Assembly (NCBI GenBank): GCA_965208575.1
Contig: CBDBOV010000005.1
Location: 544,001-608,000 of the forward strand
Origin: Spirochaetia bacterium
Lineage (GTDB): Bacteria; Spirochaetota; Spirochaetia; SZUA-6; Bin103
Length of the DNA: 64,000 nt
Reading direction: 5' to 3'
Below, in pieces: positions 3,823-48,083 of the stretch. Numbering within the stretch: the first letter of the stretch is position 1; each line of letters begins with the position of its first letter. The notes under the pieces were generated by a model that was given only the letters and a program-made list of their open reading frames with translations, was not told the origin of the DNA and ran no database searches. Both the position numbers and the translations under genes were made by a program.

Positions 3823-3988
3823 GGAGATTGACATCGATGCGAACACCTTTTATGTTGGAGCGCCAAATCCGCAATCGACTATCAGCGAGAATATCCTAAG
3901 AGTCGAAGGCCGGTCCGTGCTCAGGACGTAACACCAAGTCCTATGGGGGAAGCGAGGAACATGACTGCTAACACGTCGGGGGACGACG

Positions 3989-6004
3989 ATGAGACTCACG
4001 CATGTGCGAGTGCAGAACTATCGCTGTGTCCGTGACACAGGGTTGTTCGAGGTCGACCCGGCGAAGACGATTCTGGTAGGGCCGAACGAGGCCGGCAAGA
4101 CTGCGGTTCTTGAGGCTCTCCAGCAGATCAACCCACCCGCTGAAGTGAAGGGATTCGACCCTCTGCGCGACTACCCGCGCAAACTCTACAACGCCGACAT
4201 CCAATCGCAGAAGCGAGATCCCAGCGAGATTCCAATCGCGTCCGCTCAGTTCGCGCTTGAGCCCGACGATCTCGCCGTACTCCCGGACGGATTTGCTGCC
4301 ACGGGGTACCGATGTACCCGATTCCTCAACAACAAGCTAACGCACTGGCTCGAAGGCGGGCCGGAGGTTGTTGTGTTCAGCGAGGAGATTCGGAAGGATC
4401 TGATGCGTCTCGCCGCCCACGTCGACAGCCGTGGCGATGAAGACGGCGAGGCGGGGCTCGCCGTGGGCCTCGAAGAGATCATTACCGACTGGCACGTTGG
4501 GACGACCAAGATCGCCTGTGACCGCGCCGCTGAGCTGCGGCAGTGGCTCGACTCGATCTTGGAGTTCGTCGACGAGAACGATGCGACCCAGGATCAACGC
4601 CACACTCGCCTCCTTCAGTACACGCGGATAACGGAAGAGCGCGACGCCGCCCTCAAGAAGCTCAACAGTCGGATGCCGGTGTTCGTGTACTTCAGTAACT
4701 ATTTTCGCGTTCGTCCCAATCTCCACCTGCGCCGCTTCGCCGATCGCGTCGAGCAGGAGCTCCTTGACGATGACCGCTATGACTATGGCAACCTCTGCCT
4801 GCTCAAACTCCTCGGCTTCGACGCCCGGAGGCTGGCGGACCTCGGAAACGCTCCTGATCCGGGAGACGATGAAGAGGCATTCGACGGCTACCGCAGCCCG
4901 CTCGACGAGCGCGCCATCAAGCTCAACGCTGCCAGCGTTCGCCTAACCGGAGAAATCCGATCAATCTGGAACCCGGACCCTACTCGCGCTGAAGCCGATA
5001 CCGTGCTGATACAAGCCGACGGCCAGTACCTCAAGGTAGTGGTCCAGGACGAACTTGGCGTTCAGATCGAGGTAGACCAGCGCTCCGCAGGGTTTCAGTG
5101 GCTTGTGTCGTTCTTCGTTGTCTTCTTCGCCGAAGCCGAAGACGCTTACACCAATGCCATTCTGCTGCTCGACGAGCCGGGGCTGAGTCTCCATGGCCTC
5201 AAGCAGCGTGAATTCCGCCAGACCCTCTCACGCCTTGCCGAAGGCAACCAGACGATCTACACGACACACTCTCCCTTCTTGGTCGGACCCGAGGAATTGG
5301 ACTTGGTGCGCGTGGTGGAGATGACCGACCGCGACGACGGCACCAAGGTGCATACAAGCGTCACTGCAACCGATCCGGCCGCACTCCTGCCCCTACAGGA
5401 AGCGCTTGGGTACGATCTCGCTCAGAGTCTGTTCGCGCAGCAACGTAACTTGGTTCTGGAGGGCCTGACGGACTTCTGGTATTTCGAGGCGACCGCGCAA
5501 CTGCTACGCGACGCCGACCTAGCCAACCTCAACCAGAAGATCGCTCTGCTCCCTGCGAACACTGCCAGTAAAGTCGTGTACTTCGCCACCATCCTTCATG
5601 CGAACAATCTCAAGGTGGCCGCCCTGTTGGATTCCGACAACGCCGGGGATCAGGCTGCCAAACAGGAGACACTCATGCACACTCTCGGGAACAAGAACAT
5701 TCTCCGGACCCGTGATGTTTGCTCCGGCGCGATTACCAAGTCTGAAATCGAAGATCTGCTGCGCACCACTCTCGTTGGCATCGCTCAGTCGGAGCTTGGT
5801 TGGGACGCCATGGAAGTGTCCTCCAAGCAGCCACGCCGACCGATTGTCGACATCTTTACGGATGAGATAGACCATTTTTCCAAGTACCGACTCGCTAAGG
5901 CCTACCTGCGTTGGACCCGCGATCACAGCGCTGCTGATCTCACCGAAGACGAACGGAAATCATGGGTGGAACTCATCAAGCTAGTGAATCGAGCGCTTAA
6001 GTAG
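3989..6004 (+). CDS. OLD-family-like ATP-dependent nuclease (ABC/AAA ATPase + TOPRIM)
   Basis: Walker A GPNEAGKT, signature RSAGFQW, Walker B LLLDEP, H-loop TTHSP; TOPRIM LVLEGLTD and LLDSD. Confidence 0.85.
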   Translation: MRLTHVRVQNYRCVRDTGLFEVDPAKTILVGPNEAGKTAVLEALQQINPPAEVKGFDPLRDYPRKLYNADIQSQKRDPSEIPIASAQFALEPDDLAVLPDGFAATGYRCTRFLNNKLTHWLEGGPEVVVFSEEIRKDLMRLAAHVDSRGDEDGEAGLAVGLEEIITDWHVGTTKIACDRAAELRQWLDSILEFVDENDATQDQRHTRLLQYTRITEERDAALKKLNSRMPVFVYFSNYFRVRPNLHLRRFADRVEQELLDDDRYDYGNLCLLKLLGFDARRLADLGNAPDPGDDEEAFDGYRSPLDERAIKLNAASVRLTGEIRSIWNPDPTRAEADTVLIQADGQYLKVVVQDELGVQIEVDQRSAGFQWLVSFFVVFFAEAEDAYTNAILLLDEPGLSLHGLKQREFRQTLSRLAEGNQTIYTTHSPFLVGPEELDLVRVVEMTDRDDGTKVHTSVTATDPAALLPLQEALGYDLAQSLFAQQRNLVLEGLTDFWYFEATAQLLRDADLANLNQKIALLPANTASKVVYFATILHANNLKVAALLDSDNAGDQAAKQETLMHTLGNKNILRTRDVCSGAITKSEIEDLLRTTLVGIAQSELGWDAMEVSSKQPRRPIVDIFTDEIDHFSKYRLAKAYLRWTRDHSAADLTEDERKSWVELIKLVNRALK

Positions 6005-6283
6005 GTAGAGTCAGTGAGCAACACTCGACAGTACGGAGTATATAGAAGGAAAGGGCCTGCAATTGCGCTCCTGGCAAGGCGGACACTCGGCGCTGGGCGC
6101 TTTCTCAGGCGAGCACGCGCCGGGGGCGAAGAAGAAGAGGTGACCGAGGCGTCACTGAACAGCGTGCCCGCTAAGCAGATCCGCGCGAGGTTCCACGAGA
6201 TTCCTAACGGTTCTTGGCTTTACATGGGCTACGGCGCCCGTTTGCTGCAGGTCCAGGACATGGACGAGACGGACGGACAGACT

Positions 6284-6411
6284 CTCACCGATGTTGTCGC
6301 GGGCAAGCTCAATGTAGCGAAGGCGGCGCTAACTGTCACGAATACGACGTCGCCGTGGGCGCCGAGGAACCGACTGACGAGCGTGCAATCGAACAGGAGA
6401 TAACCGTATGA
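6284..6411 (+). pseudogene. Probable 3' remnant of type I specificity subunit S
   Basis: LTDVVAGKLNVAKAA resembles the HsdS C-terminal (L)IxDVVTGKLDV motif; an acidic tail in another frame ends overlapping the next ATG; lies upstream of hsdR. Confidence 0.5.
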
Positions 6412-6635
6412 TGGACTGGAGCAACTGCCCGGCGGTGGAACGTAAGCCGGGCAAGATCAGCGGGGCTTGGGCATTCACAGGAACACGGGTACCGGTGTAC
6501 GCGTTGTTCGAGAATCTCGCCGGCGGTGCCACGATCGACGAATTCGTGGAGTGGTTTCCAGGCGTCGAAAAGCAACAGGTGCGTGCAGTACTGGAACATG
6601 AAGCACGGGCGCTGAGAAAGGCGCTGGCCCCTTGA
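6408..6635 (+). CDS. DUF433-family antitoxin
   Basis: DWSNCPAVER..GKISGAWAFTGTRVPV..LFENL..GATIDEFVEWFPGV; AGGAGA SD upstream; overlaps the next gene. Confidence 0.9.
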   Translation: MMDWSNCPAVERKPGKISGAWAFTGTRVPVYALFENLAGGATIDEFVEWFPGVEKQQVRAVLEHEARALRKALAP

Positions 6636-6952
6636 AGCTATTGTTCGATCAGGGCACGCCGGCTCCATTGCGGGTGCACCTTCCGGGGCATTCGGCGGAG
6701 ACGTTGGCCGAAAGGGGCTGGTCGGACAAGGACAACGGCGAGTTGCTTGATCTGGCGGAGCGAGAGGGCTACAGGGTTCTCGTGACGACGGATCAGAGTC
6801 TTCGCTACCAGCAGAACATGGCCGGGAGGCGAATCGGCCTTGTCGTTCTTCTTTCCACGGATTGGCGCGAGGTTCGCCTTCGGACAAGGGAAATCGGCGA
6901 GGCGATTGCGGCCGCGGGGTCCGGTGGGGTCATCGAAGTGCCCATTCGGTGA
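6632..6952 (+). CDS. DUF5615 / PIN-like toxin
   Basis: KLLFDQGTP..GW..NGELLDLAE..VLVTTDQSLRYQQN; TTGA overlap with the DUF433 gene. Confidence 0.88.
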   Translation: MKLLFDQGTPAPLRVHLPGHSAETLAERGWSDKDNGELLDLAEREGYRVLVTTDQSLRYQQNMAGRRIGLVVLLSTDWREVRLRTREIGEAIAAAGSGGVIEVPIR

Positions 6953-9900
6953 AGTGATATGGCTACGGATACCACGGAACGGGCGCTGGAACGGCTGATC
7001 TGCACGGCGCTGGCGGGACATCCGTGCGATCCGCCGTCTGAGGGCGCCGTCGCGGATCCGCCAGCCGGGTACGGCGGGGTGGGGTGGACTGGCGGTAGTT
7101 TTCCACGACTACGACCGCGAGTACTGCGTCGACTTGGTGCAGCTCGCGGCATTCCTGCGTGACACCCAGCCCGAGGTCGCCGATGCGTTGGCGCTGTCCG
7201 AGGACGGTCCGACGCGGCGCGGGTTCCTGACTCGGCTGCAGGGGGAGATTGCCAAGCGCGGGACCATCGACGTGCTGCGCAACGGGATCAAACACGGACC
7301 GCTGCACCTGGATCTGTTCTATGGCACGCCGTCGGAGCACAACGCCGAGGCGCAGGAACGGTTCGCGCAGAACCGGTTCACGGTTACGCGGCAGCTTCGC
7401 TACAGCAGGGACGAGGCGCAGCGGGCGCTCGACATTGGGCTGTTCATCAACGGGCTGCCGGTGTTCACGTTCGAGTTGAAGAACAGCCTTACCAAACAGA
7501 CGGCGGACGACGCGGTGTTGCAGTACCAGCAGGATCGCAATCCGCGCGAGAGGCTGTTCGAGTTCGGGCGCTGCATCGCGCACTTCGCGGTGGACGAGCG
7601 CGAGGTGCAGTTCTGCACCCATCTCAAGGGCAAGGGGTCGTGGTTCCTGCCGTTCAACCGTGGTTGGAACGACGGCGCGGGCAACCCGCCGAACCCGCAC
7701 GGGCTGGCGATCGACTACCTGTGGCGCGAGGTGCTTCCGCGGGAGAGCCTGACCAACATCCTCGAGAACTATGCCCAGGTGGTGGAGGAGAAGGACGAGA
7801 AGACCGGCAGGAAGCGGCGGGCGCAGGTCTGGCCGCGCTACCATCAACTCGACGTGGTGCGCCGTCTGCTGGCCGACGCCGAAGCTCACAGGGTGGGGCG
7901 GCGTTACCTTATCCAGCACTCGGCGGGCAGCGGCAAGAGCAACTCCATCGCCTGGCTGGCGCACCAACTCATCGGACTGACCAGGGACGGCGCGCCGGTG
8001 TTCGACTCGATCATCGTGGTGACCGACCGGCGCATCCTCGATCGGCAGATCCGCGACACCATCCGACAGTATGCCCAGGTGTCGGCGACGGTCGGGCACG
8101 CCGACCGATCGGGCGATCTGCGGCGGTTCATTGAGAGTGGCAAGAAGATCATCATCTCCACGGTGCAGAAGTTCCCGTTCATCCTCGACGAGATCGGCAA
8201 CGAGCAGCGCGGGCGCAGCTTCGCGATCATCATCGACGAGGCGCACTCCAGCCAGGGCGGCCGTACCAGCGCGGCGATGGCGCAAGCGCTGTCGGTGGCC
8301 GGCGAGGTGGACGAGGAGGAGACCTACGAGGACCAGATCAACCGCCTGATGGAGTCGCGCAAGCTGCTGCCCAACGCAAGCTATTTCGCGTTTACCGCCA
8401 CGCCCAAGAACAAGACGCTGGAGATCTTCGGCACCCCGGACCCGCAGCCGGACGGCACAGTGCGGCACAACGCCTTCCACAGCTACACCATGAAGCAGGC
8501 GATCCAGGAGAAGTTCATCCTCGACGTGCTCGCCCGCTACACGCCGGTGGCCAGCTACTACCGGCTGGCCAAGACGGTGGAGGATGACCCGGAGTTCGAC
8601 GTCAAGAAGGCGCAGACGAACTGCGCCGGTTCGTGGAGAGCAGCGACCACGCGATCCGCCTCAAGGCCGAGATCATGGTCGACCACTTCCACGACCAGGT
8701 GCTCGCGCAGGGCAAGATCGGCGGCGCGGCGCGGGCGATGGTGGTGACCAACGGCATCGAGCGCGCCATCCAGTACTACCACGCCATCAGCGACTACCTG
8801 GCCGAGCGCAAGAGCCGCTACCAGGCTCTGGTCGCCTTCTCCGGCGAGCACGAGTACGGCGGCGTGAAGCTGAGCGAGGCGTCGTTGAATGGCCTGCGGT
8901 CGGCGCAGATCGCCGACCGCTTCCAGGATGCGTATTCCGGTGAAAAAAGCCACCCATTCCGGAAATAAAAAGCCACCGGGGAGTGGTCCGATCCTGAGAC
9001 GGCGAGTATAGCGGGGTGGCTTTTTTGAATCAATCTGACGGAGTGCGCGAAGGGAGTTCGGAGCGGTAACGAAGTTCCGGCCAGAGTGTCCGCGGGTGGC
9101 CTGTCGAGAGGAGGCCTGGCAGACCACGGTGGCGGAGGGAACCGCATCGACGGTGCCCCGGAACGGTGTGTGAGCGCCGCGTGATAGGGCGGAGAGTGCC
9201 CACGTCGCCGATGGAGCGCCGACGCGGCGGTGCGCCCGCCGCCGCTGCTGCCGCGACCTCGACCGGGTGGTCCGGCGGCCGGCAGCGGCAGTTGGCTGGG
9301 AACAGCAGTGCGACGGATTGCCCGTGGGTGCCTCGATGCGGCCATGCGCATGGCGGAGCGGTGGAACGCGCGGAGCCCGCGGCGCTGAGAAAGCGGTGAC
9401 TGCGGTCACGATACGGATTTTCCGGGGGATGCCTGAGGAACTCTCGCAGGTTGGAGGGCCGGCAGAGAGGCCGACTCTGACGCGAGCGGCCCCGCTGACA
9501 GCCAGGCGACTGGCCTGACACCCGTGGAGGGGCCGGAATGCCGGCGAGCACCGTCGCGACGGGTGCTCATGGTGCGCGCCGCGTGGTCGGGCTCGATGAC
9601 TGAGCGCGAACTCGCCGGCAAGTAACCCGGCGGTTGAAAGCGAACCGCACCCCGGCGCAGGGTGGGCGACCGAGCGGTGGGCCGTGCGCATGGAGTTCGG
9701 CACCCGCGGCGCGGACCGGCAGGACGAAGCCAACCGCAAGAGCCGCCGCAATCAGTAGGGCGCGCACCCGAGCAACCGTGGCGGGGGGCTGATAGACGGG
9801 CCGCCGGGCCGTGGTACATCGGCAGCAGGGGTGTCGTCTTCACCGTTTGCGTGTGTGCGGCGGTCGGAGTGGCCATCGGCATCATCGGCACCGTATCCAT

Positions 9901-35230: not shown

Positions 35231-35260
35231 TTGACATCCCATTGACCGCGCCGGTAGCGT
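35231..35260 (+). promoter_or_regulatory. Putative promoter of the ku operon
   Basis: TTGACA-18-TAGCGT, then a GGAGG SD and the GTG at 35281. Confidence 0.5.
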
Positions 35261-35280
35261 TCGATGCACGGAGGAAAGCG

Positions 35281-36171
35281 GTGGCGCCACGTTCCAACTG
35301 GAAGGGATTCGTTCAGCTCAGCCTGGTTTCGGTGCCGGTAAAGGCGTATACCGCCAACGACACCAGTGCCCAGATCCGGCTCAATCAGTTGCACCGCGAG
35401 TGCAACAGCCGCATCGCGTACAAGAAGGTGTGTCCGGAGCACGGCGAGGTGGGCAACGATCAGATCGTGCGCGGCTACGAGCACGCCAAGGGCAAGTACG
35501 TGGTGATTGACGATGACGAGCTCGACAAGCTGCGCACCAAGAGCGACCGGTGCGTCAACATCGAGGGGTTCGTGGCGCCGGAAGAGGTCGATCCGATCTA
35601 TCACGCCGGGCGCACCTACTACCTGCTGCCCGACGGGGCGGTGGGACAGAAGCCCTACCGCCTGCTGGTACGCGGCATGGAGGAGAACGGCGTGAACGCC
35701 GTTGCCCAGGTGGTGATCGCCCAGCGCGAGCAGCTCGTGCTGCTGCGCCCCTACGACGGCATTCTCGCCATGACCATCCTCAACCACCAGGCCAAGGTGA
35801 AGTCCTCCGGCGCCTACCGGGACGAGGTCGCCGACGACGAGTGCAGCGCCGAGGAGCTGCAACTCGCCGGTACGCTGATCAACGCATCCCGCATCCAGGA
35901 CTTCGACTACGGCAAGTACGCCGACCGTTACGTCGAGAAGCTGTCCGATCTGATTCGCCTCAAGGTGGAGGGCGCTGAGGTGGTGCAGACGCCCGATACC
36001 GAGGCGCCGCAGATCATCAACCTCATGGAAGCACTGAAGCAGAGCGTCGCCGCGGCGCAGGGAGCCGCCGCCGAGGCGGGCGGCAAGAAGCAGGCGCCGA
36101 GCGCCAAGACCCGGCGCCAGGACCAGGCCGACGACGAGTCCGAGGCCGGCGACAAGCGCAAGGCCGGTTGA
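35281..36171 (+). CDS. ku: NHEJ Ku protein
   Basis: RSNWKGFVQLSLVSVPVKAY, LNQLH, IVRGYE, YYLLP, D.Y.EKL.DLI..K, IINLMEALKQS. Confidence 0.96.
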   Translation: MAPRSNWKGFVQLSLVSVPVKAYTANDTSAQIRLNQLHRECNSRIAYKKVCPEHGEVGNDQIVRGYEHAKGKYVVIDDDELDKLRTKSDRCVNIEGFVAPEEVDPIYHAGRTYYLLPDGAVGQKPYRLLVRGMEENGVNAVAQVVIAQREQLVLLRPYDGILAMTILNHQAKVKSSGAYRDEVADDECSAEELQLAGTLINASRIQDFDYGKYADRYVEKLSDLIRLKVEGAEVVQTPDTEAPQIINLMEALKQSVAAAQGAAAEAGGKKQAPSAKTRRQDQADDESEAGDKRKAG

Positions 36172-37133
36172 GCCGCGGAGCCGGGACCATAACCGCTGCC
36201 AACCTGCCGGCCCGCTTCGCGCCGATGCTGGCCACGTCGGGCTCACCGTTCGACTCCGACCGCCACCTGTTCGAGGTGAAGTGGGACGGTATCCGCGCCG
36301 TCACGATGGTGGATCCGCACGGTGTGCGCATGCTGAGCCGCCGCGGCAGCGACCTCACCGGCAACTACCCTGAGCTGGCCGTGCTGGAGCGGCTGCCGCC
36401 GGGCACGGTGGTGGACGGGGAGATCGTGGTGCTCAACGAGGGCCGGCCCGACTTCGAGTTCGCCCTGCGCCGTGACCGCCGCGGCTCGGGGGCGCCGGAC
36501 GGCACCGGGCAACCCGCCGCCTACCTGGTGTTCGACCTCATGTATCTCGGCTTCGCACCCACCATGGATCGGCCCCTGCAGGAACGCCGCAAGCCGCTCG
36601 CGGAACTGGTCGGCGCCTGCCGGTCGGACCACGTCGTTCTTTCCGAGGGCATCGTCGGCGCCGGCGTCCGGTTCTACGGCGAGGTGTGCGAGCGCGCCAT
36701 GGAAGGGGTCATGGCGAAGCGGCTCGACAGCCGCTACCTGGCGGGGAGACGCTCCGACGCGTGGGTGAAGATCAAACGCCGTGTCAGTTATCATTGCCTG
36801 GTGCTGGGTTTCATCGCCAAGGAAGGGCGCGACTTCCAGAGCCTGGCGGTGGCCACCGAGCGAGAGCCGGGGGCCGGGCTGCGCTACGCCGGCCGCGTGG
36901 GCGGCGGGTTCGATGCGGCCGAACGGGCCGAGCTCAACGACCTGCTGCGCCGCCACCGTTGCGACGAGCCGCTGCTGCCGCTGCCCGGCGACCGCTCGGC
37001 GCGCGACCAGCTCGACCAGGTGTGCTGGGTCGAGCCGGTGTTGTTCTGCGTCGTATCCTGCCTGGAAATGACCGCCGGCGGCATGCTGCGCGCGCCGGTG
37101 TTCGAACGGCTGGTACGGGAGGGCGAGGCGTGA
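36168..37133 (+). CDS. Stand-alone ATP-dependent DNA ligase (LigC / LigD-ligase type), catalytically intact
   Basis: Motif I EVKWDGIR, III DGEIV, IIIa FDLMY, IV EGVMAKR, V WVKIK; OB domain ending LRAPVF. Confidence 0.93.
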   Translation: MSRGAGTITAANLPARFAPMLATSGSPFDSDRHLFEVKWDGIRAVTMVDPHGVRMLSRRGSDLTGNYPELAVLERLPPGTVVDGEIVVLNEGRPDFEFALRRDRRGSGAPDGTGQPAAYLVFDLMYLGFAPTMDRPLQERRKPLAELVGACRSDHVVLSEGIVGAGVRFYGEVCERAMEGVMAKRLDSRYLAGRRSDAWVKIKRRVSYHCLVLGFIAKEGRDFQSLAVATEREPGAGLRYAGRVGGGFDAAERAELNDLLRRHRCDEPLLPLPGDRSARDQLDQVCWVEPVLFCVVSCLEMTAGGMLRAPVFERLVREGEA

Positions 37134-38485
37134 GCGAGGCGATGGAGGTGACGTTTGCCGGCCGGCTGGCGTCGATGACGCAGCGCGAGGCCGCCGAACG
37201 GGTCGGTGCGGCCGGCGGCCGCGTGGTGCGCGAGCCGAGCGTGCGCACCGATTACCTGGTCGTGGGGCACGGTGCCTGGCCGCTCGGCAGCGACGGCCTC
37301 CCGGACCGGAGCGTGCTGCGCACCCGGCGCCTGCGGGAGCAGTACCCGGACCTGGAGATCGTCTCGGAGACCACCTTCCTGGAGATGCTCGGCCTGACCG
37401 AAAAGGTGGACGACCTGCAGCGCCTGTTCACGACGGCGCAGTTGAGCCGCATCCTGGGCATCCCGGTGCCGCACATCCGTTCCTGGATGCGGCGCAAGCT
37501 GATCCGTCCGGCCAAGGTGGCGCGCCGCCTGGCCTGGTTCGACTTCCGCGAAGTGGCAATGGCGCGCGCGCTGCACACCTTGACCAGTGCCGGTGTCAGC
37601 ACGGCGCGCATCGGGCGCAGCATTCGCGATCTCGCCCAATGGCTACCCGACGCCGAGCGCATGCTCACTCAGCTCGAGACCCTGTCGCCGGACCACAAGC
37701 TGAGCATCCGGCTCACCGACGGCAGCCTGGTGGAGCCCACCGGGCAGCGGCTGTTCGACTTCCACGGCGGCGTCGCCGATCCGAGCCGGCGCACGTCGGC
37801 CGGCAACGTGTTCTCCATGGCTGCCGCCGCGGCCCCGGAGGAAGGCGCCGCGCCGCCGATCGAGTTTCCGCTCCCGTCCGGCATGCAGCCGGGCGGCAGG
37901 CAGCCGGAGGGCGAGACCGGCACGGAGGGGGCGCGCCGCGGGTCGCGCGAAGCGGGACGCGTTGTGGACCTGCAGGCGCGGGCCGGCGGCGGGCGCGGCG
38001 GCGGTCTTGCCGGGGCGAGCGCAGAGCGACTGTTCGAGCGCGCCGTCGCGGCCGAGGATGCCGGGCAGTGGAAGCTGGCGCAGCAGCTCTACGAGGGCGC
38101 CCTCGCGGCCGGCGGTCCGGATCCCGAAACCTGCTTCAATCTTGGCAACGTGCTGTACGAACTCGACCAGAAGCGCGCCGCCGCCGAGCGCTACCGGGAG
38201 GCCGTGGCCTTGGACGGCGAGTACGTGGAGTCGCTCAACAACCTCGGCAATGCCCTCGCCGAGACCGGCTGGTTGAACGATGCCGTCCACGCCTACCGCA
38301 GTGCGCTGCAACTGGAGCCCTCCTATGCGGATGCGCACAGCAACCTGGCGGAGACGCTGGTCTACCTGGGTCGCTACGACGAGGCGCGCCTGCACTGGGC
38401 AGCCTACCTTGACCTCGATCCGCACAGCTCATGGGCCGCGGCGATACGCGAGCTGCTCGAAAACCTGCCGCCAGACCGGGACTGA
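37130..38485 (+). CDS. BRCT + MerR-like HTH + TPR protein (451 aa)
   Basis: VTFAGRLASMTQREA..GG.V..TDYLVVG..IVSE..FL (BRCT); FTTAQLSRILGI....IRSW....LIRP (HTH); four TPR units at the C-terminus; GTGA overlap with the ligase. Confidence 0.85.
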   Translation: MSEAMEVTFAGRLASMTQREAAERVGAAGGRVVREPSVRTDYLVVGHGAWPLGSDGLPDRSVLRTRRLREQYPDLEIVSETTFLEMLGLTEKVDDLQRLFTTAQLSRILGIPVPHIRSWMRRKLIRPAKVARRLAWFDFREVAMARALHTLTSAGVSTARIGRSIRDLAQWLPDAERMLTQLETLSPDHKLSIRLTDGSLVEPTGQRLFDFHGGVADPSRRTSAGNVFSMAAAAAPEEGAAPPIEFPLPSGMQPGGRQPEGETGTEGARRGSREAGRVVDLQARAGGGRGGGLAGASAERLFERAVAAEDAGQWKLAQQLYEGALAAGGPDPETCFNLGNVLYELDQKRAAAERYREAVALDGEYVESLNNLGNALAETGWLNDAVHAYRSALQLEPSYADAHSNLAETLVYLGRYDEARLHWAAYLDLDPHSSWAAAIRELLENLPPDRD

Positions 38486-38486
38486 A

Positions 38487-38593
38487 CGCCCCGAAACCGC
38501 CGCCTGCGGCGACGCTTCCGGCCCAACCGGCCTGCCTAGCGCCCCGAAATCCCCGCCTGCGGCGGCGCTTCCGGCCCAACCCGGCCTACCTAG
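38487..38593. repeat. Two imperfect tandem copies of a 53/54-bp unit, each ending in CTAG
   Basis: 38487-38539 and 38540-38593 both read CGCCCCGAAA..CGCCTGCGGCG.CGCTTCCGGCCCAACC..GGCCT.CCTAG. Confidence 0.9.
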
Positions 38594-38623
38594 GAGCCTG
38601 CCGGAATCCGACAGGCTCCTAGG
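38589..38623. repeat. 35-bp near-perfect palindrome between convergent genes (possible IS-end scar or terminator)
   Basis: CCTAGGAGCCTG-CCGGAATCCGA-CAGGCTCCTAGG. Confidence 0.85.
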
Positions 38624-39401
38624 CTCGCAAGCGCAGCAGGGGGCGCGCGAACGACACCGGCAGGTAGTCCCCGGTGCGCCGCGACCTGGTGCCGGGCGTC
38701 ATGAAGTGGATGGCGAAGGCGCGCCGTTCGCGCGCGGTTTCGTTTGCGCCGGTGTAATGGAAGGTCTGGCAGTGGTGCAGCATGGCGCCGCCGGCCGGCA
38801 GCTCGATCGCCACCGCCTTGGCAGGGTCCACGCGGCTCGCGTTGTCGAGCAGCGCGTCGGTGGTGGTCGACCGGTCGTGTTCCATTGCGCCCAGATGGGA
38901 ACCGGGAATCACCTGCATCGCGCCGTTGGCCACGGTCACGTCGTCGAGGGTCAGCCAGCAGCTCACCAGGTTGGCAGGCGCGCATTGCCAGTAGGCGTTG
39001 TCCTGGTGCCAGAACACCGGTCCGCCGTGGTGCGCCGGCTTGTACAGCGCCTGGTCGTGGAACAACTGCAGGTTGGGTCCGAGCAGGTCCTCCACGCAGT
39101 CGAGGATCTGGTCGTGAAACAGCAGGCGGCGGAAGTGCAGGTTGCGCTCGCACATCTGCATGATCTGCAGCATCTGCTCCGGCGCCTCGTTCTTCTTGCG
39201 CAGGTCGTCGGTGTTGTCGATCGACAGGTTGCGGAACGCCGCACCGCCGGCGCGGGCGCGCGCGAACTCCCGGTCGTACTCGCGCCGCAGCAAGTCGAGC
39301 AGGTCATCATCGAGCAGCCGCCCGAGCCTGACGTACCCGTCGCGCTGAAACCGGCCCACCTGCTCGGCGCTGAGCCCGCGGTGCCCGTTGGCATCGCCCA
39401 T
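38619..39401 (-). CDS. Phytanoyl-CoA dioxygenase (PhyH) family Fe/2-OG oxygenase
   Basis: FQRDGY, YKP, WHQD, WLTLDD..NGAM.VIPGSH, H....N.....RRA. Confidence 0.92.
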   Translation of the reverse strand: MGDANGHRGLSAEQVGRFQRDGYVRLGRLLDDDLLDLLRREYDREFARARAGGAAFRNLSIDNTDDLRKKNEAPEQMLQIMQMCERNLHFRRLLFHDQILDCVEDLLGPNLQLFHDQALYKPAHHGGPVFWHQDNAYWQCAPANLVSCWLTLDDVTVANGAMQVIPGSHLGAMEHDRSTTTDALLDNASRVDPAKAVAIELPAGGAMLHHCQTFHYTGANETARERRAFAIHFMTPGTRSRRTGDYLPVSFARPLLRLRA

Positions 39402-39452
39402 GTTCGTTGTTGCGCCTCCCGGCGCCATTCTACCGCGGCCCGCGGATCCGCG

Positions 39453-41558
39453 TCAGGAGGAGGGATCGGCGAGATAGACCTGCAGCCGGTCGATGGCCGG
39501 CGCGAAATCCTGCCGATCGGTCAGGGCAGCGCGGAACAGGTCGCCGCGGCGGGTCAGCATCTCCGGGACGTTGGCGATGGTGAACCGGCTCGGGTGCAGG
39601 TCGCCGTCCAGCTCGTCCCACTCCAGCGGCATCGACACCCGCGCGCCCGGCACCGGCCGCGCCGCGTACGGCGGCACCACCGTGGCGCTCCTGCGGTTCT
39701 GCAGGAAGTCGACGTACACCTTGCCGCCGCGCCCCCGCGGCAGGCGTTCCACGCTCGCGATGTCGGGCAACTCGCGCGCCACCACGCGCGCCACCGCCTC
39801 CATGAACAGCCGCACCTGCTCGTAGCTGAATCCGCCGGCCAGCGCGACGTACACGTGCAGCCCGGACGCGCCGGAGGTCTTGATGGCGGGGCGCAGGCCG
39901 ATGCCGCGCAGCACCTTGCCGGCCGTACGCGCCACGCGCACCGCGTTGGCGAAACTGGTCTCCTTGGCGTCCAGGTCCAGCACCGCGTAGTCGGGCACGG
40001 CCAGGCTGCCGCGCCGCGACAGCCAGGGGTGCAGCTCGATGCTGCCCAGGTTGACCAGGTAGAGCAGGGTGCGCAGGTCGTTGCAGATGAACTGCCGGGT
40101 GTGGCGGTCGTCCACCTCCACCAGCTCCACCCAGTCCGGAATCCCGGCCGGCGCCTGGCGCTGGAAGAACGACTTGCCGCCGATGCCGTCCGGGAACCGG
40201 TTCATGTGCACCGGCCGGTCGCGCAGGTAGGGCAGAAGGTGGTCGGCAACCTGCTCGTAGTACGCCAGCAGGTCGCCCTTGGTGTAGCCGTCGTCGGGCC
40301 AGTACACCTTATCCAGGTTGCTGAACTGGACGTCGGCCTGCTCACGTTGCCGGCCGGCGGCCGCCGACAGGGCGGCGCGCACCTCCACTTCGCGCGCCTC
40401 CGCCGACGCCTTGAGGGGCACGCGCCGCCAGTCGGACTGGGCTCCCGATCGATAGGTGCTGGCGGCGCGCTTGGCGATCAGGCCGTGGAAGCCGGCGCCG
40501 GCGGCCACCGCCGCGAGGCTCTCCCCGCCGGCGGTTACGTGGTCGGCATACAGCAGCGACGGCAGCGACGGCAGCAGCGAGCGCAGGAGCTGCTTGCGCT
40601 CCAGGAGCGGCAGGCCGCGCAGGTCCCACTCGTCGTAGTGCAGCAGGTCGAACGCGTAGAATGCCACCGTACCCGCCGGTGCCGCGCCCGGACCCTCCGC
40701 TGCGTGCCGCGCGGGTCTGCCGTGCCGGTCGAGGGCCACGATCACCCCGTCGAGCAGCGCCTGCGAGGCGCGCACGCGGGCGAGGTCGCCTTCCACGGCA
40801 GCGCGGATCGGCGCGGTGAGCGTGGCCGGGCTCCCGTCCGGCGTTGCGAACGCCACTTCGCCGCCGGTGACCGAGGCGAGCACGCGCAGGCCGTCGAACT
40901 CCAGCTCGAACAGCCAGTCCGGGTCGGAGAACTGCTCGTGGTCGGCGCCCGCCGCCATCGCGCGCGGGCGCGCCGGCATCGGTGCCGGGCGGGCGGGCGC
41001 CGGGTCGATCACCGGCGGCGCCGGCTCGCCGGGTTCGCGGGCGTAGCGGTCGCGCGCCTTGAACAGCAGCCACTCGTCGTTGCCGCTCTGCCCGGCGCGC
41101 GTGCGCACCAGGTGCCATTCGCCGCGCAGGCGGCGGCCGCGCAGCACCACCTTCACTTCACCGGCGGCGATGGCGGCGGCCAGGTGTTCCGCCTTCAGCA
41201 CTTCGTAGGAGCCGGTGTCCCAGATCAGCATGGTGCCGGCGCCGTACTCGCCCTTGGGAATGACCCCTTCGAAGGTGCGGTAGCGCAGCGGGTGGTCCTC
41301 GGTGTGCACGGCAAGGTGCTTGACCGCCGGGTCGTAAGAGAAGCCGCGCGGCACCGCCCAGCACACCAGCACGCTGTCGGTGGCCATGCGCAGGTCGTAG
41401 TGCAGGCCGCGCGCCTCGTGGCGGTGGATCACGAAGGTGCCGTCCGCCGCCGGGATTCCTGCCTCGTCCGCCGCTGCCGGCGACGGCCGCGGCTCCGGAG
41501 TACGGGCAAAGTCGCGCCTGGCGTCGTAGTCCGCGGTTGATCCTGGAGAGCCGGCCAT
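39453..41558 (-). CDS. ligD: LigD (phosphoesterase - degenerate ligase - primase/polymerase)
   Basis: PE: H.AR.LHYDLR, WAVP.G, TEDHP, YGAG. POL: NLDKVYWP, TKGDL..YY, RFPDG, DLD, KTSG..GLH, VDFLQN. The central ligase domain lacks catalytic residues. Confidence 0.93.
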   Translation of the reverse strand: MAGSPGSTADYDARRDFARTPEPRPSPAAADEAGIPAADGTFVIHRHEARGLHYDLRMATDSVLVCWAVPRGFSYDPAVKHLAVHTEDHPLRYRTFEGVIPKGEYGAGTMLIWDTGSYEVLKAEHLAAAIAAGEVKVVLRGRRLRGEWHLVRTRAGQSGNDEWLLFKARDRYAREPGEPAPPVIDPAPARPAPMPARPRAMAAGADHEQFSDPDWLFELEFDGLRVLASVTGGEVAFATPDGSPATLTAPIRAAVEGDLARVRASQALLDGVIVALDRHGRPARHAAEGPGAAPAGTVAFYAFDLLHYDEWDLRGLPLLERKQLLRSLLPSLPSLLYADHVTAGGESLAAVAAGAGFHGLIAKRAASTYRSGAQSDWRRVPLKASAEAREVEVRAALSAAAGRQREQADVQFSNLDKVYWPDDGYTKGDLLAYYEQVADHLLPYLRDRPVHMNRFPDGIGGKSFFQRQAPAGIPDWVELVEVDDRHTRQFICNDLRTLLYLVNLGSIELHPWLSRRGSLAVPDYAVLDLDAKETSFANAVRVARTAGKVLRGIGLRPAIKTSGASGLHVYVALAGGFSYEQVRLFMEAVARVVARELPDIASVERLPRGRGGKVYVDFLQNRRSATVVPPYAARPVPGARVSMPLEWDELDGDLHPSRFTIANVPEMLTRRGDLFRAALTDRQDFAPAIDRLQVYLADPSS

Positions 41559-41665
41559 CGCTACCGCGAGCACCGTAGCCACGCCGGTGAACCGTGGCAA
41601 GCGGCGTCGCGGCGTTGCTTCGGAGGGCCCCGCCGTGCGACCTTGCGAAGGCTGGCGGGCGACCC

Positions 41666-42067
41666 GTGAACGAACCACTACCGCAGCCGTACCTGGAGTG
41701 CATCCGGCGCTACAACGCCGGCAGCCATTGGCATGCGCACGAGGTTCTGGAGGATCTGTGGCGGGCGACGGAAGACCCCGAGCGGCGCCGGTTCTACCAG
41801 GGCGTGATCCAGTTGGCGGCCGCCTTTGTGCATGCCGAGCGTGGCAACATGCGCGGCGTGCGGCGGCTGTTGGCGAAGGCAGGCGCCAAGCTCGCGGAGG
41901 TACCCTCCCCCTATCTCGCGCTCGATGTCGGTGCGTTGCTGAAGGCGATGACGGAGGTCGATCGCGAAGCGCGTGCGGTGGGCGGCAGCCCGGGGCGTAC
42001 CTTCGACTGGTGCTGCAAGCCGCTGCTGGAACTGATGCCGGAAAGCCGCCCGCTGACGGAGGAGTGA
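41666..42067 (+). CDS. DUF309 domain protein
   Basis: YNAG..WHAHEVLEDLW..FYQGVIQLAAA..H..RGN. Confidence 0.88.
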   Translation: MNEPLPQPYLECIRRYNAGSHWHAHEVLEDLWRATEDPERRRFYQGVIQLAAAFVHAERGNMRGVRRLLAKAGAKLAEVPSPYLALDVGALLKAMTEVDREARAVGGSPGRTFDWCCKPLLELMPESRPLTEE

Positions 42068-43065
42068 TGCCACGGCGACAGAACGCACCGCGGAACGGGA
42101 CCGGCGCCGCTGTCCGCCTGCCCGCCGTAGCCGACCTGCATGCGGCCGCCGAACGCATCGGCCCGTACGTACACCGCACGCCGGTGTTCACCAACTCGTT
42201 CCTGGATGCGGAGAGCGGGGCGCGGCTGTTCTTCAAGGCCGAGAACCTGCAGAAGGTGGGGGCGTTCAAGATGCGCGGCGCCGCCAACTTCGTGCTGCAG
42301 CTCACCGCCGCCGAGGCGCGGCGCGGCGTGGTGACCCACTCGTCGGGCAACCACGGCCAGGCGGTGGCGGCGGCGGCGGGGGCCCGCGGCGTGCAGGCCA
42401 CGGTGGTGATGCCGCGCAGCTCGTCGCCGGTCAAGCGGGCAGCGGTGGCCGGCTACGGGGCGCGTGTGCAGTTGTGCGCCGACGGTGATACGGCGCGCGC
42501 CGCCGCCGCCGAGCGGATCGTGGCCGAGGAGGGCGCGACGCTGATCCACCCCTACGGCCACCCTCGCATCGTCGCCGGCCAGGGTACCCTGGCGCTGGAG
42601 CTGTTCGAACAGGTTGCGGCGCTGGACGCTGTGGTGGCCCCGGTGGGCGGCGGCGGCTGCCTGAGCGGCATCAGCGTGGCGGCGCGCGGCCTGCACCCGG
42701 AGATAGCCGTATTCGGCGCCGAGCCCGCAGCGGCCGACGACGCGGCGCGCTCCCTCGCCGCCGGGCGCATCATCCCCGTCGAGCAGCCGGCCACGGTGGC
42801 CGACGGCTTGCGCACCTCCCTGGCCCCGCTCACCTTTGCCCTGCTGCGCACGGGCCGGGTGGCGATCCTGACCGTATCGGAATCCAACATCATCGCCGCC
42901 ATGCGGCTCATCTGGACGCGCATGAAGCTGATCGTCGAACCCTCCGCCGCAGTCTCCCTGGCCGCCGTGCTCGCCCATCCGGAGCCGTTCCGCGGCCGGC
43001 GCGTCGGCATAGTCCTGACCGGGGGCAACGTCGACCTCGACCGCCTGCCGTGGGCGCCCGACTGA
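42067..43065 (+). CDS. PLP-dependent serine/threonine dehydratase / serine-racemase-like enzyme (no ACT domain)
   Basis: KAENLQKVGAFKMRGA, SSGNHGQA, GQGT, PVGGGG, VEPS, LTGGNVD. Confidence 0.92.
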   Translation: MPRRQNAPRNGTGAAVRLPAVADLHAAAERIGPYVHRTPVFTNSFLDAESGARLFFKAENLQKVGAFKMRGAANFVLQLTAAEARRGVVTHSSGNHGQAVAAAAGARGVQATVVMPRSSSPVKRAAVAGYGARVQLCADGDTARAAAAERIVAEEGATLIHPYGHPRIVAGQGTLALELFEQVAALDAVVAPVGGGGCLSGISVAARGLHPEIAVFGAEPAAADDAARSLAAGRIIPVEQPATVADGLRTSLAPLTFALLRTGRVAILTVSESNIIAAMRLIWTRMKLIVEPSAAVSLAAVLAHPEPFRGRRVGIVLTGGNVDLDRLPWAPD

Positions 43066-46254: not shown

Positions 46255-48024
46255 TCAGTCCGGCCCGTGCACGGCTTCGCATGACACCATTTCCCAACCG
46301 CGAAACACCACCGCCAAGCCGACGAACCGCACCGACGGGTAGCGACGCGCCAGGGATTCGTCGGCCAGATACCGCCGCAGTTGGGCGGCCGCCTCGCGCA
46401 CCGCGGCGCCGCCGCCGGGCTCGCCGGACTCGCCGCGCTGCAAGCGCTCGGAGCGCTTCAGGTAGTTGAGCTCGATCACGTAGCCGAAGCGCAGGCCGGG
46501 GTAGCGCACCAGGAACGGCTCCAGGCAGATATCCGCGTAGCCACCGCCGAGTTCGCGCTCCGAATGGAACAGGAAGTAGTCGGTCACGTTCAGATAGGCG
46601 GCCAGGAACCCCTGCACCACCTTCTCGCCGTCGATGTAGTCGCGGATGCCGGTCTGCCGGGAGATCGCCTCGCCCAGGAACTCCATGACCGGCCGCCAGG
46701 CGCCGCGGAACCCCATCTCGTGGGTCAGGCGACTGAAGCCGTACAGGTCGATGGAGAAGGCGCCGACGTCGCGGTATGCGTCGCGCAAGTAGCCATACAT
46801 CAGCCGCTTGACGGTCTGGTTCGGGATGCCGAGCCGCGGCACTCCGTCGGCCGCGCCGCGGATGCTCAGCAGACCGAAATAGTACAGCAGGGAGACGAAG
46901 TTCTCGCGCTGGTCCAGCCGGTCCAGCGGGAACCCGGTCTGCACCGGACCGTCCGCCGTCTCCTCGCCGATGATCTGCCGCAGCAGGTCGAAGTTGCCGT
47001 TCAGTTGCCGGTTGACCACCAGCAGATGGCGCAGCTTGCCGTAGTCGATGCGGACGTTGGTGTCGATCATCTCGTCAGGCGCCGGCTCGTTCGGCAGGGA
47101 CTCCTTGAGGTAGTACAGGACCATGTCGGTGTTGTAGACGCTGGGCTCGGCGCCGGTGGCGAACCGGTAGCCGTCATACCACTCGCGCATCAGGTCCAGG
47201 GCAGTGTCCACGTCCTGACCGAACGCTCCGTGCGCCCGATACATCTCCAGCAGGTTGCGCACCTCCGGCTCCGTGAAGCCCAGCATCTCGTTGAATCTCG
47301 ACTTCAGGCTGATGTTGGAGCCGATGTTGAAGCCGCTGGTGACGTCGTCCATGGTGATCGGCGAGACGCCGGTGATGAACAGGCGCTCCAGGCCGCCGCC
47401 GCTGCGTCCCGTCGCGACCTTCAGGACGGCGAAGAAGTTGCGGTAGAAGCCGCCGCCGTGGGTGAACGACTGGTACGCCTCGGCGCCGCGATGCGCAAGC
47501 ACGGTGTTGGCGAAGTTGTCGTACTCGTCGATGAGCACGTACAGCGGAATGCTCCACCTCCTGGCGTGCCGGAACAGTTCGTTGAGCTTGGCGTCGATCG
47601 ACGGCGGGTCAAGGATGCGCTGCGCCGCGTCGGCCGGGAACACGTCCGGATTGCGCTCGAGCGTGTCCCGTAGCTCCATGGCGCAATAGATCTCGAACTC
47701 CCGCTCCAGGGTTTCGAGCGTGTCGTTGACCGCGGAGAAGTCGAACCGCAGGATGACGTAGCGGGAGCGGTTCGGCGTGGGGTTGCGCCCGATGTCGGTG
47801 CCGGCGAACAGAGTCTCGAACCGGTCGGCCCGGTTGCGGTCGTAGTAGTGCTCCAGGAGGGACACCCAGCACGACTTGCCGAAGCGGCGCGGACGGATCA
47901 GGAACGCGTAGCGCTCCTCCTCCAGGTGGTGGAGGAAGCGGGTCTTGTCCACGTAGAGCCGGCGCTCCAGCCGGATCGCCTCGAAGTCGGCCCAGCCGTA
48001 AGGAATCCGCGGGTAGGTAGGCAT
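46255..48024 (-). CDS. AAA-ATPase-like protein with C-terminal PD-(D/E)XK domain
   Basis: RIPYG..DF, YVDKT, RPRRFGKS, LIDEYD, FITGVSP, WYDGY.F, IPN, GYADI..IELNY. Confidence 0.9.
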   Translation of the reverse strand: MPTYPRIPYGWADFEAIRLERRLYVDKTRFLHHLEEERYAFLIRPRRFGKSCWVSLLEHYYDRNRADRFETLFAGTDIGRNPTPNRSRYVILRFDFSAVNDTLETLEREFEIYCAMELRDTLERNPDVFPADAAQRILDPPSIDAKLNELFRHARRWSIPLYVLIDEYDNFANTVLAHRGAEAYQSFTHGGGFYRNFFAVLKVATGRSGGGLERLFITGVSPITMDDVTSGFNIGSNISLKSRFNEMLGFTEPEVRNLLEMYRAHGAFGQDVDTALDLMREWYDGYRFATGAEPSVYNTDMVLYYLKESLPNEPAPDEMIDTNVRIDYGKLRHLLVVNRQLNGNFDLLRQIIGEETADGPVQTGFPLDRLDQRENFVSLLYYFGLLSIRGAADGVPRLGIPNQTVKRLMYGYLRDAYRDVGAFSIDLYGFSRLTHEMGFRGAWRPVMEFLGEAISRQTGIRDYIDGEKVVQGFLAAYLNVTDYFLFHSERELGGGYADICLEPFLVRYPGLRFGYVIELNYLKRSERLQRGESGEPGGGAAVREAAAQLRRYLADESLARRYPSVRFVGLAVVFRGWEMVSCEAVHGPD

Positions 48025-48083
48025 GGCGGCTTACCGGAGCGGCTCCATGAGCGTTGTACGATTCCGGGCAGAGATCGTTGACT

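Follow-up and report, generated by a model that had tools for sequence, protein, structure and literature searches.

A candidate accessory protein of Ku-dependent end joining encoded directly after ku in a Spirochaetia bacterium and in other bacterial lineages

Introduction

Bacterial non-homologous end joining (NHEJ) has so far been treated as a two-protein pathway, in which a Ku homodimer is paired with the multidomain protein LigD. In the portions available to us, papers on bacterial end joining describe only Ku and LigD (PMC6379672, PMC11936186). Here we analyze a 64,000-nucleotide stretch of the genome of a Spirochaetia bacterium (GenBank assembly GCA_965208575.1, contig CBDBOV010000005.1, positions 544,001 to 608,000; hereafter the window), in which ku and the gene for a stand-alone ligase (lig) are followed by a third gene, which we call g3. 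Its product combines a BRCT domain, a MerR-type winged helix-turn-helix (wHTH) and tetratricopeptide repeats (TPRs).

Like the canonical two-component system, the window encodes Ku together with the phosphoesterase and primase-polymerase of LigD. It differs from that system in two respects. The ligase activity belongs to a 321-aa protein of its own, encoded in the ku operon, with the ligase domain of LigD having lost its lysine and OB domain, and the chain of ku and lig is extended by the gene for a third, non-enzymatic protein. Eukaryotic repair scaffolds offer a comparison: by analogy with XRCC1-ligase III and with the ligase IV BRCT domains and XRCC4, g3 may be a non-enzymatic, BRCT-bearing and linker-rich ligase helper at breaks. 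Homology to these scaffolds is limited to the BRCT fold and the other domains differ, which makes this an analogy rather than membership of the same group.

The terms BRCT, TPR and tetratricopeptide do not occur in the available text of a paper on Sinorhizobium end joining (PMC6379672), and BRCT, TPR, MerR, neighbourhood and operon do not occur in that of a 2025 paper on Ku evolution (PMC11936186). Similarly, the bacterial proteins named in the accessible part of a review of BRCT domains are limited to LigA and Pol III epsilon (PMC10386641). A full-text literature search returned no description of a BRCT/MerR/TPR end-joining protein. The pathway and the individual domains are known; for the conserved third component and the splitting of the ligase, these searches yielded no description.

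An operon of ku, a ligase gene and g3

The three genes are co-directional and joined by 4-nt overlaps:

35281..36171, forward strand: ku, 296 aa (TIGR02772, 252.2 bits against a cut-off of 150; PF02735)
36168..37133, forward strand: stand-alone ATP-dependent DNA ligase, 321 aa, with nucleotidyltransferase and OB domains (PF01068, PF04679)
36279-36290, forward strand: intact motif I of this ligase, KWDG
37130..38485, forward strand: g3, 451 aa, a protein with BRCT, MerR-type wHTH, hairpin, linker and TPR elements

The ku gene starts at GTG 35281, preceded by GGAGGA at 35270-35275. The TTG start of the ligase at 36168 overlaps the ku stop codon as TTGA, and the GTG start of g3 at 37130 overlaps the ligase stop as GTGA. 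The ligase scores 55 bits with PF04679 and 218.3 bits with the NHEJ ligase-domain model TIGR02779, slightly under the cut-off of 227.75. The GC content of the region is high (0.65-0.76). As the third-position GC of g3 (0.89) equals that of ku and lig, and the overlapping frames have lower values (0.52-0.77), we conclude that g3 is a real gene. The original prediction, made from the sequence alone, had already chained ku, an intact ligase and a 451-aa gene by 4-nt overlaps and had read a BRCT domain, a MerR-like HTH, a QRLFDF motif, a disordered linker and four TPRs in the third protein; its coordinates for the genes agree with ours and all of these elements are present.

Two long open reading frames, 36686-38485 (599 aa) and 39453-42434 (993 aa), were rejected as high-GC artefacts, their true starts lying further in. 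At the RNA level, contigs of two metatranscriptome libraries (X20 and X21, from two studies), which are 90-99% alike to the window, cover parts of ku, lig and g3. None of the contigs in X20 or X21 bridges a gene junction, leaving a single transcript unsupported and DNA carry-over possible. Several runs labelled as sponge metagenome contain DNA near-identical to the window.

Linkage of g3 to ku across phyla

Among 41 genomes of the order to which the window organism belongs, the N-terminal part of g3 is found in 25 and Ku in 27. In every one of the 25 g3-bearing relatives, g3 starts about 1.8 kb past the ku start on the same strand, and all 20 relatives whose loci were fetched have the order ku-lig-g3. 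The distribution follows families: f1, f2 and f5 have Ku in 26 of 28 genomes and g3 in 24 of 28 (G000 not counted), while f3, f4, f6, f7 and f8 have neither. Two Ku genomes, G004 and G014, lack a g3 match; the assembly of G004 has a completeness of 76% and carries ku on a short contig. Most junctions are tight. The ligase and g3 genes overlap by 4 nt in six loci (L004, L007, L013, L092, L093 and L099) and by 8 nt in two, with a gap of a few bases in several others; ku and the ligase gene overlap by 4 nt in three loci. Thus, g3 is co-encoded with ku, and with the ligase where there is one, through 4- or 8-nt overlaps or few-base gaps in most of the ku-lig-g3 loci examined. Across 401 genomes of the window phylum, g3 was recovered only in G000, alongside six weak BRCT-only matches; hence, as far as sampled, the family seems confined within this phylum to the order of the window organism.

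Beyond this order, the family comprises 429 representatives of 50%-identity clusters at E<=1e-30, and nearly all of the 150 cluster representatives listed are 370-470 aa long. A search for distant loci was keyed on TPR patterns; about 55 of the 80 loci it gave were TPR-only, mostly from Acidobacteriota, and were left out. In other phyla, 22 distant loci have a match to the g3 N-terminus, and in 14 of these Ku lies directly upstream. The arrangement is kept across records titled Planctomycetota, Brocadiaceae, Spirochaetia and Terriglobia. In four distant loci (L002, L003, L012 and L014) ku is followed by g3 with no ligase gene in between; therefore, the link is to Ku itself.

We also examined an evenly drawn sample of 301 genomes of Planctomycetota, the phylum of L010 (record title Pirellulales), taking matches at E<=1e-10. 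The 48 matched genomes divide into 30 with BRCT, wHTH and hairpin, 10 with wHTH and hairpin, six with the BRCT alone, one partial match and one with internal stops. There are g3-like genes in 40 genomes and Ku in 40. In 21 of the 40 genomes with g3, the gene for Ku immediately precedes it on the same strand, at a distance of no more than 3.5 kb; conversely, 17 Ku genomes are without g3. We fetched 20 of the linked loci, of which two repeat L002 and L003 and were excluded from the LigD count; among the other 18, 15 have LigD at most about 4 kb away from the g3 match. Taken together, g3 stays right behind ku, in clusters that include LigD as well, across lineages of several phyla, as judged by record titles. 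The original prediction had named homologues lying mostly away from ku and ligase genes as the outcome contrary to it, and phylogenetic profiling finds the opposite, with 25 of 25, 14 of 22 and 21 of 40 being ku-linked.

A tree of 73 core g3 sequences was computed with a quick IQ-TREE search, L120 and L121 having been dropped as duplicates of L003 and L002. On this tree the ku-linked label changes five times, as against a mean of 18.5 when labels are shuffled, and 15 of the 21 unlinked sequences form one clade (SH-aLRT 98). One genome, G652, carries both a ku-linked copy and a copy of the unlinked clade; therefore, the linked and unlinked forms are paralogous subfamilies. No common neighbour of g3 was found among the ku-less loci examined.

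Several individual loci are of interest in their own right. A short g3 of about 300 aa, which starts at the wHTH and is without the BRCT domain, still stands directly after ku-lig in L083, L085-L089, L095-L098 and L100, and the short form is also present in 10 genomes of the 301-genome sample. In L081 (G034; about 3865-4960) g3 matches in two reading frames, one for its N-terminal part and another for its TPR part, for which a frameshift, a pseudogene or an assembly error are possible causes. L117 (G519; 5010-7568) encodes two tandem g3 homologues in a genome where no Ku was found. In L101 (G687; 4729-4896), from a genome without Ku, a 55-residue ligase-like remnant lies just upstream of the g3 homologue inside an 883-aa frame, and may be a relic of a former ku-lig-g3 operon. 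An apparent ligase-g3 fusion (P0104, 620 aa) was rejected as a frameshifted assembly: after the ligase nucleotidyltransferase domain it reads the out-of-frame stretch that is also found ahead of g3 in the window.

Division of the ligase function between two proteins

Downstream of g3, two genes lie on the opposite strand:

38619-39428, reverse strand: PhyH-family dioxygenase, convergent, between g3 and LigD
39453..41558, reverse strand: LigD, 701 aa from ATG 41558, with phosphoesterase, degenerate ligase and primase-polymerase domains (PF13298, PF21686 and weak PF01068)

The LigD protein is above the cut-off for the component models of its phosphoesterase and primase-polymerase domains (TIGR02777, 182.4 against 144; TIGR02778, 239.3 against 214.7). 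With TIGR02779 it scores 103.6 against 227.75, the match covering only positions 6-183 of 302. At motif I, where KxDG is found in ATP-dependent ligases, it has ELEFDG (40884-40907). With both the catalytic lysine and the OB domain gone, the ligase domain of the window LigD is predicted to be dead. The same holds more widely: the motif I lysine is missing in the LigD of 13 of the 14 other loci with a readable motif, while all 29 stand-alone ligases examined keep KWDG. Loss of the lysine from LigD always goes along with a stand-alone ligase in the ku operon, and L003, which has g3 and no stand-alone ligase, keeps it. This indicates that the stand-alone ligase replaces the ligase domain of LigD. 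The g3 gene accompanies Ku in both ligase arrangements.

Loci of the same genus have a gap of the size of PhyH between g3 and LigD; in other lineages LigD abuts g3. Between g3 and PhyH in the window there are two tandem GC-rich repeat copies, 38487-38527 and 38540-38580 (41 of about 53 nt matched). The 28-nt core of this repeat occurs 18 times in the genome, against none for a reversed control, and the depth of metagenome contigs rises about ten-fold over the bin that holds it. It looks like a dispersed repeat of the repetitive extragenic palindromic (REP) kind. Further downstream, 46255-48030 (reverse strand) encodes a protein with predicted AAA-ATPase (PF09820) and PD-(D/E)XK nuclease (PF08011) domains.

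Domain architecture of g3

An AlphaFold2 model of g3 built from 100 homologues has a mean predicted local distance difference test (pLDDT) score of 82 and a predicted template modelling (pTM) score of 0.74. It divides the protein as follows:

37130..37405, forward strand: BRCT domain, residues 1-92 (pLDDT mostly >90; profile and fold matches)
37418..37645, forward strand: MerR-type wHTH, residues 97-172 (PF13411)
37652..37765, forward strand: short helix (175-185) and beta-hairpin (about 193-211), ending in GQRLFDF at 37742-37762 (pLDDT about 70)
37766..37999, forward strand: disordered linker of variable length, residues 213-290 (pLDDT <50 for 213-280; length and sequence vary in the alignment)
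38003..38464, forward strand: TPR domain, residues 292-445, four repeats and a cap (nine helices, pLDDT >90)

In the model, residues 1-92 adopt the alternating strand/helix arrangement of a BRCT-like alpha/beta fold. The Pfam BRCT model (PF00533) gives no call in the window protein at E<=0.01; it is among the precomputed matches of many homologues. NCBIfam models of a Pol III epsilon family and of LigA match weakly with their BRCT ends, and a 21-member g3 family profile matches the BRCT domains of RFC1 (E 8e-7) and LigA (E 1.2e-5). A Foldseek search with the model of the N-terminal half ranks the RFC1 BRCT domain (2ebu) first. In VIA fold searches the BRCT domain of g3 matches those of Rad4 (4bmd; Z 8.2, root-mean-square deviation (rmsd) 3.2 over 81 residues) and RFC p140 (2k7f; Z 7.5, rmsd 3.4 over 77 residues), with XRCC1, ligase IV and Pol mu also being recovered (Z 6.2-7.4). 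Thus, the single BRCT domains of LigA and RFC1 (p140) are the best profile and fold matches; unlike these, the g3 domain is N-terminal, is fused to a wHTH and TPRs rather than to a ligase or clamp loader, and is missing in some lineages. The family consensus keeps a T-G and an R that align with the T-G and R of RFC1, which we take to contact the 5' phosphate. Glycine 11 is present in 99 of 100 homologues; before it, at position 10, 51 of them have T and 42, like the window copy, have A. According to a review, an S/T-G in the beta1-alpha1 loop of BRCT domains binds phosphate (PMC10386641).

The wHTH matches MerR_1 (PF13411) with 35.1 bits against a cut-off of 21.6 over residues 100-165. Its closest folds are DNA-bound MerR regulators: the N-domain of TipAL (VIA Z 9.3, rmsd 1.5 over 69 residues), TnrA (Z 8.8) and GlnR (Z 8.5), the three spanning rmsd 1.5-2.6 over 69-77 residues, with BmrR also among them. 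The g3 profile likewise matches GlnR (E 3.8e-6). The domain also resembles the MerR-like protein binder CbpM (VIA Z 7.8). Residues R107, R117, W119 and R121 are conserved across the family. MerR family members typically have a long antiparallel coiled-coil dimerization helix after the wHTH. Such a helix is absent from the g3 model, where the wHTH is followed by an 11-residue helix (175-185), then the hairpin and the disordered linker; hence, g3 is probably monomeric. In its wHTH fold g3 resembles the minimal MerR proteins (GlnR/TnrA and the TipA N-domain) and CbpM, and GlnR and TnrA are similarly without the long coiled coil. It departs from the minimal MerR proteins in having no effector domain, in having no MerR-type ku promoter or shared operator (see below), and in the placement of the wHTH between a BRCT domain and TPRs. 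PADLOC returned for g3 a weak HTH match to mad1 only, and databases label the relatives of g3 just "tetratricopeptide repeat protein" or "MerR regulator".

The hairpin is strongly conserved. All 100 homologues share R194, G205 and Q206, and 99 share F211; position 209 is L or F in 99, and L207 is kept in 74. The end of the hairpin, which in the window protein includes QRLFDF as residues 206-211, thus has the form G-Q-[L/R]-x-[L/F]-D-F and lies immediately before the variable linker.

The C-terminal region is matched by TPR families over residues 296-445 (TPR_2, 65.3 bits). Foldseek with the whole g3 model finds TPR proteins only, reaching E 8e-9 to consensus TPR proteins, and the TPRs of O-GlcNAc transferase are among the best fold matches of the domain. 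It has conserved asparagines at N337/N340, N370/N371/N374 and N405. In TPR proteins such as O-GlcNAc transferase, the groove that binds peptides is lined by asparagines of this kind.

Potential partners of g3

Set against the 15 members of the unlinked clade, 28 full-length ku-linked g3 proteins differ at 11 positions that are conserved within each group, six of these being in the TPR domain. Four of the six replace conserved asparagines in the unlinked clade, namely N340 by E, N370 by T, N371 by Q and N405 by H. Such replacement would fit a change of TPR ligand when g3 left ku.

A candidate for the ligand in the linked systems emerged from a comparison of Ku tails:

36085..36102, forward strand: KKQAPS motif in the flexible C-terminal tail of Ku, residues 269-274

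Of 54 g3-linked Ku tails, 38 carry K[MLQ]APS, or 46 when the pattern is relaxed, as against 0 of 24 unlinked Ku proteins (1 of 24 relaxed). This contrast is confounded by clade, since the median identity to the window Ku is 32% for the unlinked and 58% for the linked proteins. The motif sits 10-25 residues from the C-terminus in an otherwise variable basic tail. We suggest that K[MLQ]APS may be a docking peptide.

For the hairpin, a different kind of partner comes to mind. Proteins that bind the beta clamp do so through motifs of the form QL[SD]LF or the hexapeptide QLxLxL. The g3 hairpin motif fits the hexapeptide pattern and is followed by a disordered linker. The original prediction had raised clamp binding as a speculative role of QRLFDF; the near-invariance of G-Q and of the final F lends that remark something, but binding to the beta clamp is still speculation. 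The G-Q of the hairpin is kept in 13 of 15 members of the ku-less clade.

The ku promoter

The region upstream of ku bears on whether g3 might regulate its own operon. Read by eye, it contains a likely promoter:

35231..35260, forward strand: likely ku promoter, TTGACA (35231-35236), an 18-nt spacer and TAGCGT (35255-35260)

The pattern TTGAC[AT]-N17/18-TAG[CT][GT]T precedes ku in five of the six loci from the same genus (L090-L094, L099 being the exception), as well as in L082, L084 and L004; a simple consensus promoter scan did not call the ku promoter. Across the loci examined the spacers are 17-18 nt long. In MerR-type activation, by comparison, the operator palindrome lies within a promoter with a 19-20 nt spacer. 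No inverted repeat is common to more than three of 42 ku upstream regions, and shuffled sequences reach four. Thus, at the ku promoter, the only one considered, neither MerR-type spacing nor a shared operator was found. Moreover, the promoter types vary by lineage (TTGACA-N17-TAGCTT vs TGCTACAAT) while the wHTH stays conserved. Four terminator-like matches, one on the reverse strand inside ku and three overlapping at 38719-38738 inside PhyH, are no more than shuffled sequences give.

A divergent homologue in Sinorhizobium

A tblastn search of plasmids with the g3 N-terminus gave nothing at E<=1e-5. By way of Ku, followed by profile comparison, we nevertheless reached a homologue on pSMED01 of Sinorhizobium medicae (L156, 2460-8409), where five packed genes encode LigD, Ku, a 361-aa TPR protein, an Abhydrolase_11 protein and an exonuclease III-like protein (Exo_endo_phos). 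The 361-aa protein matches the g3 N-terminal profile over BRCT, wHTH and hairpin with an hhalign probability of 96.2% (E 2.2e-9), and the end of its hairpin aligns as G-Q-M-L-L-D-V. As in the window, a TPR-bearing g3 homologue directly follows ku. Unlike in the window, the wHTH of the homologue is degenerate, with no Pfam call for MerR or BRCT, LigD is intact, and two further genes (Abhydrolase_11 and Exo_endo_phos) come after the homologue. This packing suggests that there are further end-processing helpers in Alphaproteobacteria. Sinorhizobium is a genus with established end-joining genetics (PMC6379672).

Functional considerations

That g3 is tied to end joining is well supported by its co-location with ku, and this link is undescribed in the literature searched. 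The original prediction had cast the protein as an NHEJ scaffold or damage-responsive regulator; ku synteny upholds the end-joining part of that suggestion, whereas the choice between scaffold and regulator is not settled and the linkage is not universal. On balance, we lean towards g3 being a dedicated accessory protein of Ku-dependent end joining, a DNA-end-binding adaptor rather than an enzyme. Its N-terminal half, with a single LigA/RFC1-type BRCT domain and a MerR-type wHTH, would bind DNA at or near the break. The groove of the four TPRs, with its conserved asparagines, would hold a short peptide of an end-joining partner, the K[MLQ]APS of the Ku tail being the candidate, and the long disordered linker would let the two halves reach across the Ku ring. 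Such bridging may be needed here, given a stand-alone ligase without a Ku-binding polymerase domain and a LigD that keeps its phosphoesterase and polymerase beside a seemingly dead ligase domain. The GQ-x-x-[LF]-x-F hairpin could either dock within g3 or recruit a further, Ku-independent partner.

A number of observations weigh against this proposal. Of the 40 g3-bearing genomes in the Planctomycetota sample, 17 are without detected Ku and two have Ku elsewhere, and Ku was likewise not detected in three of five further g3 genomes; therefore, part of the family works without Ku. Most members of the ku-less clade retain the hairpin motif; the partner of this element is therefore not Ku, and it cannot be a contact specific to Ku. 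The BRCT domain is missing in the sister genus g2 (11 of the 20 fetched relative loci) and in 10 of the 40 sample genomes, and so is dispensable; moreover, the window protein has A-G and Q where the T-G and R of RFC1 align. As for the putative docking peptide, to the clade effect noted above is added the Sinorhizobium Ku tail, which is without K[MLQ]APS. What we propose for g3 beyond its co-location with ku is inferred from domain homology, and MerR-type domains are most often transcription factors.

The last point leads to the possibility that g3 is a transcription factor for the ku operon or a wider damage regulon, its MerR-type domain binding an operator and its BRCT and TPR domains sensing or binding partners. 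We hold this to be rather unlikely, although several points favor it: PF13411 is matched above the cut-off, TipAL, TnrA, GlnR and BmrR, whose structures are closest, are DNA-bound regulators, relatives are named MerR regulators in databases, and the members in Ku-less genomes fit a regulator with other targets. The want of a dimerization helix beyond the 11-residue one cuts both ways, since GlnR and TnrA are real regulators likewise without the long coiled coil. However, the ku spacers of 17-18 nt are not of the 19-20 nt MerR type, no inverted repeat is found in more than three of the 42 upstream regions, and the promoter types differ between lineages in which the wHTH residues are conserved. 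In addition, translational coupling implies amounts similar to those of Ku, which would be unusual for a regulator, and the MerR fold can also serve in protein binding, as in CbpM.

Members in Ku-less genomes would also fit a general DNA-damage or replication factor, for instance one tethered to the clamp via GQLxLDF, that shares the timing of ku expression and has no direct role in end joining. The 15 full-length members from sample genomes without detected Ku, the RFC1/LigA type of the BRCT domain, and a hairpin motif that fits the clamp hexapeptide, lies just ahead of a disordered linker and persists in the ku-less clade all point this way. Nonetheless, we judge this improbable: g3 comes immediately after ku on the same strand in all 21 linked sample genomes and in 25 of 25 relatives, which is tighter than co-regulation needs, while the remodelled TPR groove of the unlinked clade suggests a derived, re-purposed form, and G652 holds both forms. 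Kin share gene order and many of the genomes counted are related, so that the adjacency of ku and g3 might even be a passenger effect with no functional meaning. This is very hard to credit, given that the arrangement survives deep branches of the g3 tree, several phyla including an alphaproteobacterium, and the gain or loss of the intervening ligase.

The accessory-protein reading that we prefer can be taken further, to one in which g3 is the obligate third subunit of a split end-joining machine. Here, the BRCT domain and wHTH would hold the 5'-phosphate end beside the Ku ring and the TPRs would take the K[MLQ]APS peptide, thereby positioning the ligase and the ligase-dead LigD, while GQLxLDF would bring in the beta clamp. 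We regard this full scheme as doubtful. If true, it would couple bacterial end joining to clamp-dependent synthesis, and g3 would be an independently arisen counterpart of the XRCC1/XRCC4-type scaffolds.

Conclusions

Bacterial end joining probably has an undescribed helper. Its role is directly testable, as the module is small and a distant homologue lies behind ligD-ku on a Sinorhizobium megaplasmid. It is also relevant to genome-editing tools that import bacterial Ku and ligase pairs. A g3 scaffold would explain what keeps a separate ligase together with a ligase-dead LigD, and a non-enzymatic protein whose gene stays chained to ku in several phyla would be the pathway's first candidate for a scaffold or accessory subunit.

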